Positions 21,508-27,148 of a stretch of DNA of 64,000 nt are shown here, piece after piece. Below the pieces are notes generated by a model. The model was not told the origin of the DNA and did not search any database. It saw only the letters and a list, made by a program, of their open reading frames with translations. The stretch's first letter is position 1; each line of letters starts with the position of its first letter. The stretch comes from Candidatus Moraniibacteriota bacterium (GTDB taxonomy: Bacteria > Patescibacteriota > Minisyncoccia > Moranbacterales > UBA1568). The position numbers were made by a program, and so were the translations under genes. The stretch lies in contig JAHFOO010000004.1 in NCBI GenBank assembly GCA_023261645.1, forward strand, positions 4,486 through 68,485, given 5' to 3'.

Positions 21508-21660
21508 CACGTTCATTCCAGTTTTCTTTTGGGAGACTTGTTTTCCCAAAGCGGGCATGGTTTTTTGCTTACTTGAAAGCAAAAAGAGCGAAGGGGAAAC
21601 AGGAGTGAGTGAAACGGCTGGATGAGCGAGCGTGCTCCAAAAAGAAAGCTGGAATGAAAC
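21508..21660. repeat. structured ~153-nt element with ~22-nt terminal inverted repeats (MITE-like or ncRNA), copy 1, 130 nt upstream of ychF
   Basis: about 93% identical to reverse complement of 26996-27148; ends cacgttcattccagttttctttt / aaaagaaagctggaatgaaac are inverted repeats. Confidence 0.75.
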
Positions 21661-21788
21661 CGGGATAAACAGCGTTATAGAATCTGATATATGACATTCT
21701 TGTTGACCGAGAGACTTTTTTCTGGGAGAATAGAGACTGTTGTGGCAGTGTATGGAATATTTTTTGGTCTCATAAGTTGCTCAAGAGT

Positions 21789-22838
21789 ATGGCACTGCAA
21801 GTAGGTATCGTAGGACTGCCAAACGTCGGGAAATCGACGTTGTTCAAGGCGCTCACACGGAAAGTGGTGGATATCAATAATTATCCGTTCTGCACCATCG
21901 AGCCGAATGTCGGTATCGTCGAAGTACCTGATGAACGTCTGGCAAAGCTCGCAAAGATGTCCGGTACGAAGAAAATCATTCCGGCCGTGATCGAATTCGT
22001 GGATATTGCCGGTTTGGTGAAAGGAGCGAGCGAGGGAGAAGGTTTGGGGAACAAGTTCCTTCAGAATATTCGCGAAGTGGATGCCATCGTGGAAGTGGTG
22101 AGAGTTTTCGAAAATCCCGATATCATCCACGTCCACAATCGAGTCGAGCCGACAGAGGACATCGAAATCATCAATACGGAACTCATCTTGGCGGATATGG
22201 AAACGGTCGCCAAACGGAAGTTGAAAACAGGCAAAGACGCCCGGGCTGGTAAGAAAGAATCTGCGATAGAGATGATGATACTCGAGAAGTTGGAAGCGGA
22301 ATTCCAAGCGGTGCGTCTGCCTCACGCGATGATTGCGACGCTTTCCGATGAAGAAAAAAAAGTGGTGAAGAGTCTGCAACTGCTTACGACCAAACCATTC
22401 CTTTATGTGTACAATGTTTCAGATATCGATCGTCCCCTCAATCCGGAGCTCGAAGCGCGACCGCACGTGAAGCTCGATATCAAGATAGAAGAGGAACTCA
22501 TAGAAATGTCAGCCGAAGAGATTGAGGAAATGGGACTGGAGTCGCATATCGGAGATCTGGCGAAACAGGCCTATGCGCTCCTCGGACTGATGACGTATTT
22601 CACGACCGGAGTGGAGGAGACGCGTGCCTGGACTATCCCCATCGGATCGACCGCACCCCAAGCAGGGTCGGCTATCCATAACGACTTCGAAGAAAAATTC
22701 ATCCGTGCCGAAGTCATCCACGAGACGTTACTCCTCGAAGCCGGGTCGTGGAGCACTGCCCGTGACACCGGTGCTCTCCGTCTCGAAGGCAAGAGCTATA
22801 TCGTAGCAGATGGCGATGTCATCGTGTTCAAGATTTAG
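21789..22838 (+). CDS. ychF: ribosome-binding ATPase YchF (Obg-like GTPase family)
   Basis: MALQVGIVGLPNVGKSTLFKALT G1 motif, TGS-like C-terminus. Confidence 0.9.
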   Translation: MALQVGIVGLPNVGKSTLFKALTRKVVDINNYPFCTIEPNVGIVEVPDERLAKLAKMSGTKKIIPAVIEFVDIAGLVKGASEGEGLGNKFLQNIREVDAIVEVVRVFENPDIIHVHNRVEPTEDIEIINTELILADMETVAKRKLKTGKDARAGKKESAIEMMILEKLEAEFQAVRLPHAMIATLSDEEKKVVKSLQLLTTKPFLYVYNVSDIDRPLNPELEARPHVKLDIKIEEELIEMSAEEIEEMGLESHIGDLAKQAYALLGLMTYFTTGVEETRAWTIPIGSTAPQAGSAIHNDFEEKFIRAEVIHETLLLEAGSWSTARDTGALRLEGKSYIVADGDVIVFKI

Positions 22839-22957
22839 GGAATTGATTCTATACTTACTGAAAGGAGGCTGTGATACTTGACAAATATTTGTCATTTCTA
22901 CTCGTGAGGGGTATAATAAAAGAAAGAAAAATTTAAAAAAATAACAAACAAAAATAT

Positions 22958-23554
22958 ATGTTTTTGAGGATTATACTCATCAGTCTTGTTGTGTTTGTGA
23001 TTGGTGCTTCTTTCGGTGTATATGTCGTCGGTCCTTGGAGAAGTATGAATAATGATCAAGTGTCATCCGGCGTTTCCGGTGCACGTGTCGATAAAACCAG
23101 CCAGAATTATCAGGCAGGATTTGCTGATGCGCGAAAACTCGTGGAAGACAGCAGTCTTGGTAGCTTCTTCCGTACGGAAGACGATGTACGCACGGTATCA
23201 GGTACGGTGACCGCTATAAACGGCAATCGCCTCACCATACAGAGCCAATCGGCGAACAACCCTTTTGATGGATCCGCTCTCAAAGATCGCACTATCCTTG
23301 TAGATACGAACACAAAGACTATCAAGCTCACCGATAGAGACCCGGCTACCATCAAGGCAGAAATGGAAAAAAAGGCGGAACAGAGCAAATCGCCACAGCT
23401 CCCTCCTGTAGAGCTTTATGATCAGACAACTGTCGATGCCTCGAGTATTCTCGTCGGGGATTCGATAGTGGTTACCGCTTCAGACAATGTGAAGACCTTG
23501 GCCGAATTCACCGCGGAGGAGATTCGGATTCAACCTAAAATGTTCATAAAATAG
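22958..23554 (+). CDS. hypothetical membrane-anchored protein
   Basis: N-terminal TM helix, no recognisable domain. Confidence 0.45.
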   Translation: MFLRIILISLVVFVIGASFGVYVVGPWRSMNNDQVSSGVSGARVDKTSQNYQAGFADARKLVEDSSLGSFFRTEDDVRTVSGTVTAINGNRLTIQSQSANNPFDGSALKDRTILVDTNTKTIKLTDRDPATIKAEMEKKAEQSKSPQLPPVELYDQTTVDASSILVGDSIVVTASDNVKTLAEFTAEEIRIQPKMFIK

Positions 23555-23565
23555 TCTCATACACT

Positions 23566-25187: not shown

Positions 25188-25196
25188 CAGGTACGC

Positions 25197-25225
25197 TTGA
25201 CACTCATTTTTTGGCAATCTATAAT
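25197..25225 (+). promoter_or_regulatory. consensus sigma70 promoter of groEL (TTGACA-N17-TATAAT), with CIRCE-like half site GAGTGCTAA immediately downstream
   Basis: perfect hexamers with 17-nt spacer; agagaGTGCTAAta follows the -10. Confidence 0.55.
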
Positions 25226-25260
25226 AGAGAGTGCTAATACGTTTAAAGTATCAGAATACT

Positions 25261-26907
25261 ATGACAAAACAGATTTCATATGGTGCGGATGCGCGCAAGC
25301 AGATCAAAATCGGTATCGACAAGGTGGCTGATGCCGTGAAAGTGACCCTGGGTCCGAAGGGACGCAACGTCATTCTGGCCAAGTCATACGGCGGACCGAC
25401 CATCACCAATGACGGCGTGACGATCGCCAAAGAGATAGAATTGAAAGACAAATTCGAAAATCTGGGTGCGGAATTGATCAAGCAGGTGGCCGAGAAAACG
25501 AATGAGATAGCCGGTGATGGAACGACCACGTCGACGGTCATTATGCAGGCTTTGGTGCGGGAAGGATTGAAATTCGTGGAAACGGGGATCAATCCGATCG
25601 GCATCCGCCGTGGTATGGAATCTGCCAAGAATGAGGTGATAGAAATTTTGAAAAAAAATTCCAAGAAAATTTCTTCCAAGCAGGAAATCACCGATGTCGC
25701 CATCATCTCCGCCGAGAGCCGTGAGATGGGCGAGATGATCGCCGATGTGATGGATACCGTGGGCAAGGATGGCGTCGTTACGACGGAACAATCTCAGACA
25801 CTCGGACTTTCCAAAGAGATCGTGAAGGGGATGAATTTTGATAAGGGGTTCATCTCGCCGTATATGATGACCGATGCCGAAGCTCAGACCGCGGAACTGG
25901 CCAACCCGGCCATCCTCATCACTGACAAGAAAATATCGGCCATCGCCGATATTGTTCCGCTTTTGAATGAGCTTGCGAAAACCGGAAAGAAAGATGTCGT
26001 TATCATCGCCGAAGACGTCGACGGTGAAGCCTTGGCGACACTGGTGGTGAACAAACTCCGTGGTGTGATAAGTGTGATCGCAGTCAAAGCGCCGGAATTC
26101 GGTGAGAGTCGCAAGGCTGTTCTCGATGATATCGCCCTCCTTACGGGAGCGGTTGTCATATCGCAAGATAAGGGGATGAAATTGGAAAAAACGACTCTCT
26201 CGATGCTCGGTACCGCACAGAAAGTCATCGCTACCAAGGATACGACGACGATTGTCGGAGGCAAGGGAAAGAAAAAAGATATCGAGGCACGCGTACTGGA
26301 GATCAAGGCGCTCATCGATACATCCGACAGTGAGTATGATCGTGAGAAATTGAAGAAACGGATGGCGAAACTTGTCGGTGGAGTGGCCGTGATTCGTGTC
26401 GGAGCCTCGACAGAAACGGAACTCAAGTATATGAAAGACAAGATGGAAGATGCCATCGCCGCAACGAAAGCGGCTATCGAGGAAGGTATCGTGGCTGGTG
26501 GTGGTACGGCGCTTGCGAAGGCAGCTCTCCTCGTCGCAGGACAGAAGAAGTCATCTGTAACCGATCATGAATTCACAGCAGGCTACGAAATCGTCCTCAA
26601 GGCACTTTCCGAACCGCTTCGTCAAATTGTTTCCAATGCCGGAGAACAGGATCCTGCCGTTGTATTGAACAAAGTGATCGAAAGCAAGCTGGCGAACTTC
26701 GGTTACAATGCCAAAGAGAACGTGTTTGAGAATGATATGGTCAAGGCTGGTATCATCGATCCGCTCAAAGTGACGCGTACGGCGCTTGAAAACGCCGTGT
26801 CAGTCGCCGCGCTTCTTTTGACCACTGAAGCCGCTGTTGTCGATGAAGACAAGGAAGAATCGATGCCCGCAGGCAATCCGATGGCCGGTATGGGAGGGAT
26901 GATGTGA
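25261..26907 (+). CDS. groL: chaperonin GroEL (Cpn60)
   Basis: full-length GroEL with GDGTTT motif and C-terminal GGM repeat; no groES adjacent. Confidence 0.95.
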
Positions 26908-26995
26908 TCCCCAAGAAATTCCCCCGATTGTTCGTCGAAGGAGAGAAATGATAAGTTGTAAGAATTAACAGCGTTGTTAAGAGACTACATCTTTT

Positions 26996-27148
26996 CACGT
27001 TCCTTTCGGTTTTCTTTTGAGAGCACACTCGCTCACCCAGCCGTTTCACTCACTCCTGTTTCCCCTTCGCTCTTTTTGCTCTTGAAAAGCAAAAAACCAT
27101 GCCCGCTTTGGGAAAACAAGTCTCTCAAAAGAAAATCGAAAGGAACAA
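26996..27148. repeat. structured ~153-nt TIR element, copy 2 (inverted relative to copy 1), between groEL and pilB
   Basis: reverse complement aligns with 21508-21660 over the full length. Confidence 0.75.

Follow-up and report, generated by a model that had tools for sequence, protein, structure and literature searches.

Described repeats and folded sites closest to the element

Miniature inverted-repeat transposable elements (MITEs) are defined by terminal inverted repeats placed around a non-coding core, a length below about 400 bp, the lack of a transposase gene and flanking direct repeats (PMC3184786). An element recalling this definition occurs in a stretch of 64,000 nucleotides from contig JAHFOO010000004.1 of a Candidatus Moraniibacteriota bacterium; this whole stretch is called the window below. 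The window belongs to a metagenome-assembled genome (MAG) of the Moranbacteria (Patescibacteria) and contains three copies of the element, two of which lie in inverted orientation on either side of a segment with ychF and groEL. The element shows inverted repeats of 24-25 nt, a unit of 153 nt, no transposase, and presence or absence at orthologous sites, while flanking direct repeats of 4 nt or more were not found and the inverted-repeat sequence is not common to the copies. It represents a family of structured repeats that is apparently undescribed and whose core fold is kept from Patescibacteria to Omnitrophota and Bdellovibrionales.

The likeness to MITEs and to the ERIC/RU-type repeats (Correia, RUP, ERIC, Nezha; PMC3184786) extends to a length of about 100-250 nt and to non-coding, multi-copy and intergenic occurrence. 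As in these repeats (PMC3184786), the ends are inverted repeats, the whole folds into a long stem-loop, both orientations are found, and presence varies between relatives. Unlike them, the element has ends that vary freely with compensation and a centre that is conserved, and neither a target-site duplication nor a related insertion sequence (IS) was seen. Known families of the MITE or ERIC type do not range beyond a genus or family, whereas the core of this element is conserved across phyla, with strong helix covariation and a strand-specific fold.

REP and REPIN sequences are extragenic palindromes often situated near gene 3' ends or terminators, without duplications; REP sequences are thought to act as single-stranded hairpins and are vertically persistent. 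All this is reminiscent of the element. However, a REP sequence is a GC-rich hairpin of only 20-40 nt that bears a conserved tetranucleotide on its 5' side, and inverted REP sequences flank a RAYT gene, whereas the element is about 150 nt long and has a three-way-junction head. Its conservation spans phyla, and no RAYT (Y1) gene was found within 3.5 kb of about 50 copies.

The attC sites are recognized by the core sites R'' and R' (RYYYAAC...GTTRRRY) at the hairpin foot, by cassette arrays and by an integrase. The element shares with attC and other folded single-stranded DNA sites a structure conserved over sequence, a fold of one strand, a variable apical part and a size in the range of 60-150 nt. 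The arrangement of conserved parts is the reverse: attC keeps R''/R' with GTTRRRY at the foot and leaves the tip free, while in the element the foot is free and the tip is conserved. The feet of subtype A read GTTC...GAAC, the feet of the family differ between lineages, and the attC signature is absent. No integrase is found nearby and there are no ordered cassette arrays, the copies being dispersed in most genomes and clustered on one Omnitrophota contig.

Small self-cleaving ribozymes (hammerhead, twister, twister-sister, HDV-like) offer a further comparison, since they are patchy across phyla, multi-copy and without a constant gene neighbour, and have conserved loop and junction nucleotides between covarying stems as well as a closing helix joining the ends. 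The element differs from them in its unusually long closing stem (20-35 bp), in having a second subtype without part of the loop, and in matching no Rfam ribozyme model at E<=10.

Copies of the element in the window

The three copies and the structural parts of the first one are as follows.

21508..21660, plus strand: copy 1 (subtype A), from sequence, alignment, fold and covariance-model match
26996..27148, minus strand: copy 2 (subtype A), with the architecture of copy 1, from the same four kinds of evidence
7147..7288, minus strand: copy 3 (subtype B, diverged), between the 5S rRNA and the next gene, from covariance-model match and fold
~21512-21535 paired with 21634-21658, plus strand: closing stem P1 of copy 1, from the fold
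Copy 1, plus strand: P2, CUUGUUUUCCC/GGGGAAACAGG
Copy 1, plus strand: internal loop, AAAGCGGGCAUGG / GAGCGAA
Copy 1, plus strand: P3 hairpin, UUUUUUGCUU...AAGCAAAAA
Copy 1, plus strand: P4 region, degenerate, UGAAA-CGGCUGG-AUGAG

Copies 1 and 2 had been proposed by a sequence-only reading at these positions, inverted and 5.3 kb apart, and recomputation finds them there. The end-to-end identity of about 93% given by that reading was too high: in a global alignment of copy 1 with the reverse complement of copy 2, 132 of 156 columns are identical (84.6%), with 6 gap columns. The highly conserved core that it described is present and was measured over about 90 nt instead of 100 nt, from GAGACTTG to GGCTGG (86/90 identical, 96%). 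The terminal inverted repeats are likewise present but longer than the ~22 nt suggested, being 24 nt with 2 mismatches in copy 1 and 25 nt with 1 mismatch in copy 2. The internal hairpin TTTTTTGCTT/AAGCAAAAA occurs in both copies, as had been noticed. The window has exactly two occurrences of a 36-nt core string, with 0 expected from 100 shuffles.

Both copies fold far better than shuffled sequences, as a branched head enclosed by the long closing stem. The sense strand is the plus strand for copy 1 and the minus strand for copy 2. The fold of copy 1 has -59.1 kcal/mol in sense (z -4.2 against shuffles) and -44.9 kcal/mol in antisense; for copy 2 the values are -61.9 (z -4.6) and -52.7 kcal/mol. 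The differences between the two closing stems are largely compensated. Two covariance models of the family, R1 and R2, matched copy 1 at 21511-21646 with 89.9 bits (R1) and 85.4 bits (R2), and copy 2 at 27012-27146 with 88.4 bits (R1) and at 27011-27146 with 84.7 bits (R2).

Copy 3 is located 14 kb from the subtype-A pair. Its covariance-model match at 7161-7287 of the minus strand reached 20.3 bits with E 0.005 (R1) and 21.6 bits with E 0.0003 (R2, filters off), the E-values being rough. The fold has -55.9 kcal/mol (z -4.1) and comprises a P1 of 22 bp (GUCGCAAGAAUCUUUCUGGGAG/CUCCCAGGAAGAUUGCUUGUGAU), P2 (UUUUUUCGA/UCGAAAAAA), P3 (GCCGUCG/CGACGG) and P4 (AUUCAC-CGCUGG-GUGAAU). The internal loop is reduced, and only GCACGG is left of its 5' part. 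The copy is 77% identical to one in the relative L076 (4849-4990), with compensatory changes in P2, P3 and P4.

The antisense of the P4 hairpin of copy 3 together with a U-rich tract gives a terminator-like score at 7181-7198 of the plus strand, just downstream of the 5S rRNA; this site could end the rRNA operon. Two further candidate copies were rejected: that at 31888-31993 lies inside a gene and is also found at the orthologous znuA position of the relative L073, and that at 20675-20763 lies inside a gene as well.

Distribution and architecture of the family

The genomes, one per species (185,579 species representatives), were scanned with an exact pattern composed of the two halves of the internal loop (AAGCGGGCATGG, 15-45 nt, GAGCGAAGG). 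The scan returned 72 loci, of which about 50 are full elements in about 29 genomes and about 22 are chance matches within GC-rich genes. Several genomes are multi-copy, with 3-7 pattern-matching copies each. As the genome and metagenome scans used exact patterns, the copy numbers are lower bounds and the loop conservation is partly ascertained. A covariance model built from 22 members added 7 full-length copies that do not match the exact pattern; in these pattern-free copies the 5' half of the internal loop keeps GCGGGCANGG, its 3' half GAGCGANGG, and the P4 loop CGCYGG. The search for further copies, which the sequence-only reading had called for, led to a family of about 29 genomes and to a third copy in the window itself.

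The carriers bear six or more phylum-level labels, with Omnitrophota accounting for 13 genomes. The Patescibacteria are represented by Saccharibacteria, Moran-, Taga-, Lipton-, Pacei- and Parcubacteria, and further carriers belong to Bdellovibrionales, Planctomycetia, Auribacterota and one gammaproteobacterial MAG. The MAG labels are those of the submitters, and one small contig appears mis-binned. A 1.7-kb contig (L061, JAUYCX010000025), binned as Omnitrophota, bears a Patescibacteria-type copy, which a binning error or transfer may explain.

A metagenome scan with a 21-mer of subtype A found only the three known loci of the sister species. Viral contigs scanned with two core patterns gave 0 matches, and so did blastn searches of plasmid and phage collections with copy 1 of the window and with the family locus L008. 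In Rfam 15 at the gathering score, no match fell on the element in the window or in 12 canonical loci; the families left unmatched include hammerhead, twister, twister-sister, pistol, hatchet, HDV-like, 6S, SRP, HEARO and IS605-orfB. Relaxing the limit to E<=10 gave only noise on the window copies (miRNA, snoRNA and lncRNA models of 11-20 bits), noise on L008 and nothing on L009. The sequence-only reading had recognised no known RNA family in the element, which agrees with the scan, in which nothing credible was found. Two ribozyme-like interpretations of the core were dropped, one of a hammerhead-like junction (CUGAG ... GAAAG) and one that likened CCCAAAGC to twister; in both cases the core does not fit and the Rfam model is unmatched. 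In the literature, no description of the element was found by its loop strings (full text) or by keywords.

RNAalifold applied to the members recovers P1 to P4. P1 is a closing stem of 20-35 bp with lineage-specific sequence, and P2 has 8-12 bp with frequent tandem G.A pairs; one Omnitrophota genome (the JAZDPX copies) has a kink-turn (K-turn)-like UGC-GA/GA bulge in P2. Inward from P2 follow an asymmetric internal loop, the P3 hairpin with free sequence and length, a short purine-rich joining strand, the P4 hairpin with a 7-nt loop, and a second joining strand back to P1. In subtype A, the P4 stem is degenerate (UGAAA/AUGAG) around CGGCUGG. Many P3 loops are 3 nt long and closed by C-G, e.g., CCGCC-GAA-GGCGG. 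The stem sequences are unrelated between lineages and the centre is conserved; the three-way-junction head holds about 25-30 conserved unpaired nucleotides. The K-turn in P2 was dropped as a general feature, since it is seen only in some Omnitrophota copies, and the copies typical of the candidate phyla radiation (CPR) have plain tandem G.A alternating with Watson-Crick pairs.

Some copies show additional structures. A motif at the foot of P1, 5' GGGUGRC ... GNCAGGACCC 3', forms an asymmetric internal loop common to the Omnitrophota-, Planctomycetia- and Auribacterota-type copies (L001, L003, L014, L022, L028, L038, L041, L046, L055 and L072), and the Patescibacteria types are without it. One Omnitrophota contig, with at least 7 copies, has two diverged subtypes head to head, 110-120 nt apart (L024, 2340-2483 on the minus and 2603-2744 on the plus strand; L053, 6433-6576 on the minus and 6688-6861 on the plus strand); this double unit of about 540 nt is repeated at at least 2 places. 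In the Omnitrophota JAZDPX, three copies (L009, L045, L069) are nested in another palindromic repeat, GGTTTTTGCAATG...CATTGCAAAAACC. In L039 (6171-6305), a 24-nt hairpin is inserted in the 5' arm of P1.

Covariation and strand preference

The sequence-only reading had named covariation as a check on the element, and covariation was found to be strong. In the alignment of 47 true members, standard pairs occupy 87.5% of the paired cells compared with 56.4% after shuffling. Double-sided changes were found in 25 of 29 pairs (440 cells vs 142 in shuffles). A covariation score of 0.713 contrasts with 0.178 for shuffles and with 0.10-0.15 after sliding the partners by 1-3 columns. Because this alignment was fitted to the model, a separate alignment-free test was made by swapping stem arms between 34 non-redundant members. 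Cognate arms of P2 pair with -16.5 kcal/mol and swapped arms with -9.6 kcal/mol (p 2.5e-15); for P1 the values are -31.9 and -12.9 kcal/mol (p 3.7e-20).

The same behaviour is seen at short range. Nine pairs of P1 and P2 vary among the five subtype-A copies: three are fully compensated, three are kept by wobble, and the remaining three show A.C or a gap in single copies, two of them beside compensated states elsewhere.

Compared with their reverse complements, the arms in sense form the more stable stem in 32/34 members for P2 and in 30/34 for P1, and G.U cells outnumber A.C cells (64 vs 34, p 0.003). A double-stranded DNA site would show no such asymmetry, which indicates that one strand is selected, either as RNA or as one specific DNA strand.

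Placement of the copies

Gene calls in the family loci are long open reading frame (ORF) proxies and the junctions are approximate. By these calls, 39 of 52 copies overlap no long ORF. Among those with both neighbours called, 34 are flanked by co-directional genes (14 in sense, 20 in antisense) and 7 by convergent genes, and none by divergent genes. The copies reside in intergenic spacers near terminators, in either orientation. In multi-copy genomes the similarity ends sharply at the hairpin foot, and some copies are nested in other palindromic repeats.

A further check proposed earlier concerned target-site duplications. Neither the roughly 24 copies with a resolved hairpin foot nor the junctions of copy 2 show one of at least 4 nt, although with approximate boundaries 2-3 nt are possible. 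Clustering of ORFs within 3.5 kb of about 50 copies revealed no recurrent protein; the clusters consist of spurious ORFs that run across the element and of housekeeping genes unrelated to it (ABC transporter, DHH phosphoesterase, HemL, MnmA). A linkage of the element to PilB was not upheld, since only 1 other locus has PilB. In the promoter scan, no sigma-70-like promoter was found in sense orientation upstream of any window copy, the promoters of these phyla being poorly known.

Presence and absence between sister species

The following features of the window were used for comparison with the relatives.

21703..21731, plus strand: ychF promoter-like box TTGACC-N17-GAGAAT, kept in relatives, downstream of copy 1
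21777-22838, plus strand: YchF
25231-26907, plus strand: GroEL, with the stop codon at 26907
26908..27171: extra segment of ~260 nt relative to the groEL-pilB spacer of L073, including copy 2, from the occupied-versus-empty alignment
27190..27220, plus strand: groEL terminator hairpin AGAAGUCU...AGACUUCU with U-run, kept in L073

The GroEL of the window has an exact match among database proteins and is 94% identical to that of Moranbacteria bacterium CG_4_9_14_3_um_filter_45_14 (PFVP01), and the groEL-pilB-relA synteny is maintained in four relatives. In the PFVP01 species (L073), the groEL stop codon is followed by about 12 nt and then by a terminator hairpin with a TATAAT box, which align with 27171-27250 of the window; 27178-27247 is 91% identical to L073 11666-11735. 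The window has the extra segment in between. Its right junction is sharp at ~27171 and the left one is ambiguous. Within it, a weaker outer inverted repeat (~26949-26982 with 27150-27185) brings the length of the copy-2 hairpin to about 230 nt; the segment also has, at 26942-26920 of the minus strand, a weak hairpin resembling a terminator. Copy 2 is situated past the groEL stop codon and before the groEL terminator on the opposite strand, antisense to groEL and pilB.

Upstream of ychF, the relatives L076, L077 and L078 share a TTGAC-N17-GAGAAT box and are without copy 1, which in the window stands just upstream of this box. The reverse case is provided by the subtype-B copy of L076, which has the RNase J terminator on one side and the promoter of a tRNA synthetase on the other; the orthologous spacer of the window (16788-16874) has 87 nt and is empty. 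These three occupied-versus-empty comparisons among Moranbacteria represent gain or loss at individual sites. The PFVP01 species has three subtype-A copies whose flanks are without a DNA match in the 64-kb window. The non-orthologous copies of the two species are 91-93% identical, compared with 87% for groEL DNA and 83-87% for other genes.

At the orthologous loci of ychF, groEL and pilB the element is absent in the four relatives. As the relatives lacking both copies keep the order PGM(-), ychF(+), groEL(+), pilB(+), relA(-), the bracketing of ychF-groEL is incidental: copies 1 and 2 are independent insertions and not a functional pair. The sequence-only reading had treated them as a unit around this segment, a view at variance with the same gene order and orientation in these relatives and with the third copy 14 kb away. 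It had further placed copy 1 in the ychF 5' region, whereas, judged by the conserved TTGACC-N17-GAGAAT box downstream of it, the copy lies outside the leader or 5' untranslated region. A cis-regulatory leader of ychF, groEL or pilB is likewise not what was found: the loci of the relatives are empty, copy 1 is upstream of the ychF promoter, copy 2 is antisense, and the family has no orientation bias.

Neighbouring genes

The gene order around the pair is PGM(-), a Gly/Ser-rich signal-peptide protein(+), copy 1, YchF(+), two proteins with hydrophobic N-termini(+), GroEL(+), copy 2, PilB(+) and RelA/SpoT(-). This agrees with the neighbours listed by the sequence-only reading (ychF, two secreted-protein genes, groEL and pilB, with copy 2 between the last two) and with its observation that no transposase is seen. 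No transposase, recombinase, nuclease or reverse transcriptase was found among the genes around the copies, and no Pfam enzyme lies in or beside them.

A block of 1.8 kb between PGM and copy 1 (19940-21500) is missing in L076, where the PGM-ychF spacer has 183 nt. It encodes the Gly/Ser-rich protein (20577-21320), which has a signal peptide and no family match; the block was rejected as a source of an enzyme, its product being this secreted protein. The two genes between ychF and groEL (22958-25131; 198 aa and 521 aa, hydrophobic N-termini, no Pfam family) form a lineage-specific insertion, because groEL directly follows ychF in L076 and L078. The start of pilB is probably at 27259 (conserved ATGCGTATCGAA, as in the relatives) and not at the first ATG, 27229, which overlaps the conserved TATAAT box at 27225-27230.

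Elsewhere in the window, the 23S rRNA (2759-6676) spans 3.9 kb, with a group I intron match at 4802-4974. It is followed by the 5S rRNA (6854-6962), and no 16S rRNA match was reported within the window. Five tRNA genes (Asp, Met, Met, Ile, Ala) are clustered at 37857-38648 of the minus strand.

Explanations of the element

The three copies in the window, two of subtype A and one of subtype B, may well belong to a non-coding and non-autonomous mobile element that is constrained as a folded single strand; we hold this explanation with about even confidence. It accords with ends that need only pair, a conserved head, insertion sites differing between the sister species, random orientation and the avoidance of divergent spacers. 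The earlier proposal of a conserved structured RNA pointed in the right direction, the element being structured, with a cross-phylum fold and covariation. The constrained strand is probably RNA more than single-stranded DNA, in view of the tandem G.A and K-turn-like motifs and of the lack of HUH or recombinase genes nearby.

Such an element might move through a single-stranded intermediate, the unit being a folded strand of about 150 nt, or about 230 nt with the outer arms. P1, sequence-free but pairing-bound, would join the two element ends. The three-way-junction head with its P2-P3 arm and P4 hairpin could serve as the handle for a trans-acting factor encoded away from the element. The landing sites would be intergenic spacers beside terminators, in either orientation, and the window copies would be passengers taking no regulatory part in ychF, groEL or pilB.

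Several observations weigh against this explanation. Neither a mobilising enzyme nor an autonomous master copy was seen among the copies examined, and target-site duplications were not detected at the feet mentioned above. In principle, a deletion instead of an insertion might explain each case of presence or absence. The subtypes track the host phyla (a CPR type and an Omnitrophota type), suggestive of a long stay in the hosts and perhaps of a role at host level more than of pure selfishness. The search pattern itself accounts for part of the invariance of the loop anchors, which only the 7 unbiased copies test; the asymmetry of G.U and A.C cells is only about 2:1, part of it due to the model-fitted alignment. 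If RNA is the constrained form, it is awkward that the copies show no orientation bias (14 sense, 20 antisense) and that no recognisable promoter precedes those of the window; only some copies would then be expressed.

A less probable explanation, though one deserving attention, is a multi-copy gene family of small RNAs (sRNAs) with a cellular role. Each copy would be transcribed either by itself or through read-through, and P1 would then be a processing stem, e.g., for RNase III, releasing a head RNA of about 100 nt for a conserved host protein or RNA. The deep conservation of loop nucleotides while every stem covaries, the selection of the fold on one strand, and subtypes following the host phyla, suggestive of long vertical residence, all fit this possibility, as does an identity of the element between species above that of groEL DNA. 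A TTGTCA-N17-TAGGGT string (read by eye) and the weak minus-strand terminator-like hairpin also flank copy 2 in the inserted segment. However, the promoter scan gave no sense-orientation site upstream of any window copy, and since similarity stops at the hairpin foot in multi-copy genomes, no promoter or terminator is shared. A housekeeping RNA would not usually vary in copy number and position from one sister species to another, as the element does, and most related genomes seem to be without the element, with about 29 of 185,579 species representatives matching the pattern.

It is rather improbable that the element moves as folded single-stranded DNA recognised by a HUH/Y1 transposase (IS200/IS605 or REP-RAYT style), by a tyrosine recombinase (attC or CTX-phage style) or by a host replication or repair enzyme. 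This would account for a strand-specific fold tolerating G.T-type wobble, for inverted repeats of unconserved sequence without target-site duplications, for insertions beside or nested in other hairpins and terminators, for the many 3-nt P3 loops closed by C-G, and for an orientation independent of transcription. Yet the surroundings of about 50 copies contain neither a Y1 transposase gene nor a recombinase gene. Copies 1 and 2 are opposite and 5 kb apart, so that the active strand does not consistently correspond to a single direction of replication. The tandem G.A pairs and the K-turn-like bulge (UGC-GA/GA, JAZDPX copies) are, by our own reading, typical RNA motifs, and the ends of subtype A are GTTC...GAAC and not the RYYYAAC...GTTRRRY of attC.

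A new class of self-cleaving or otherwise catalytic RNA is unlikely, although by analogy it would explain the patchy cross-phylum spread, the multi-copy state, the conserved junction and loops and the lack of a fixed gene association. The pattern of distribution and conservation would resemble that of small self-cleaving ribozymes; the compact three-way junction, the asymmetric internal loop and the 25-30 conserved unpaired nucleotides would also suit, and with no known ribozyme model matched, the class would be new if catalytic. Against this, subtype B keeps P1-P4 and the CGCUGG loop but has lost half of the internal loop, which a catalytic core would rarely tolerate, and the copies are as often antisense as sense to local transcription.

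The sRNA and ribozyme explanations are not exclusive of mobility. There is a small chance that the element represents a new and mobile class of functional RNA, whose head would be catalytic (self-cleaving or self-ligating) or would recruit a universal host enzyme. This would amount to a gene-less RNA of 150 nt copying itself into intergenic sites, which might predate the split of Patescibacteria, Omnitrophota and Bdellovibrionota or might have spread among these small symbiotic or predatory bacteria.

An ordinary MITE, that is, an IS deletion derivative moved as double-stranded DNA by a DDE transposase binding the terminal inverted repeats, is very unlikely. The MITE-like character noted in the sequence-only reading holds for the 24-25-nt terminal inverted repeats, the absence of a transposase and the insertion polymorphism, and also for the lack of coding capacity, the size below 400 bp, the intergenic multi-copy state and the long stem-loop, all of which fit the published definition (PMC3184786). 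It fails for the ends, which are not conserved, and for target-site duplications, none being found. The inverted repeats are the variable part: they differ within one genome by compensated changes and are unrelated between lineages around a conserved centre, the opposite of what an end-binding transposase predicts. No transposase is near any copy, and the asymmetry of G.U and A.C is unexpected for a double-stranded substrate.

That the two copies serve to invert the 21.6-27.0 kb segment, as was once suggested, deserves hardly any credence: homologous recombination between inverted repeats of about 150 nt, 85% identical (90-nt core 96%) and 5.3 kb apart is physically possible, but the segment is in the ancestral orientation, with the gene order and orientation of relatives that lack both copies, no recombinase is nearby, and the copies are independent members of a dispersed family with a third one elsewhere in the window.

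Meaning of the family

Small intergenic repeats are usually lineage-specific IS debris. The family described here keeps both its fold and its loop sequence across phyla of mostly uncultivated, small-celled bacteria. In annotation, such hairpins should not be read as regulators of the genes they flank. The family points either to movement of non-coding DNA or RNA by a factor supplied in trans, or to a new functional RNA class absent from Rfam. If either is true, it would provide a new module of RNA or DNA recognition and a marker of genome dynamics for Patescibacteria and Omnitrophota.

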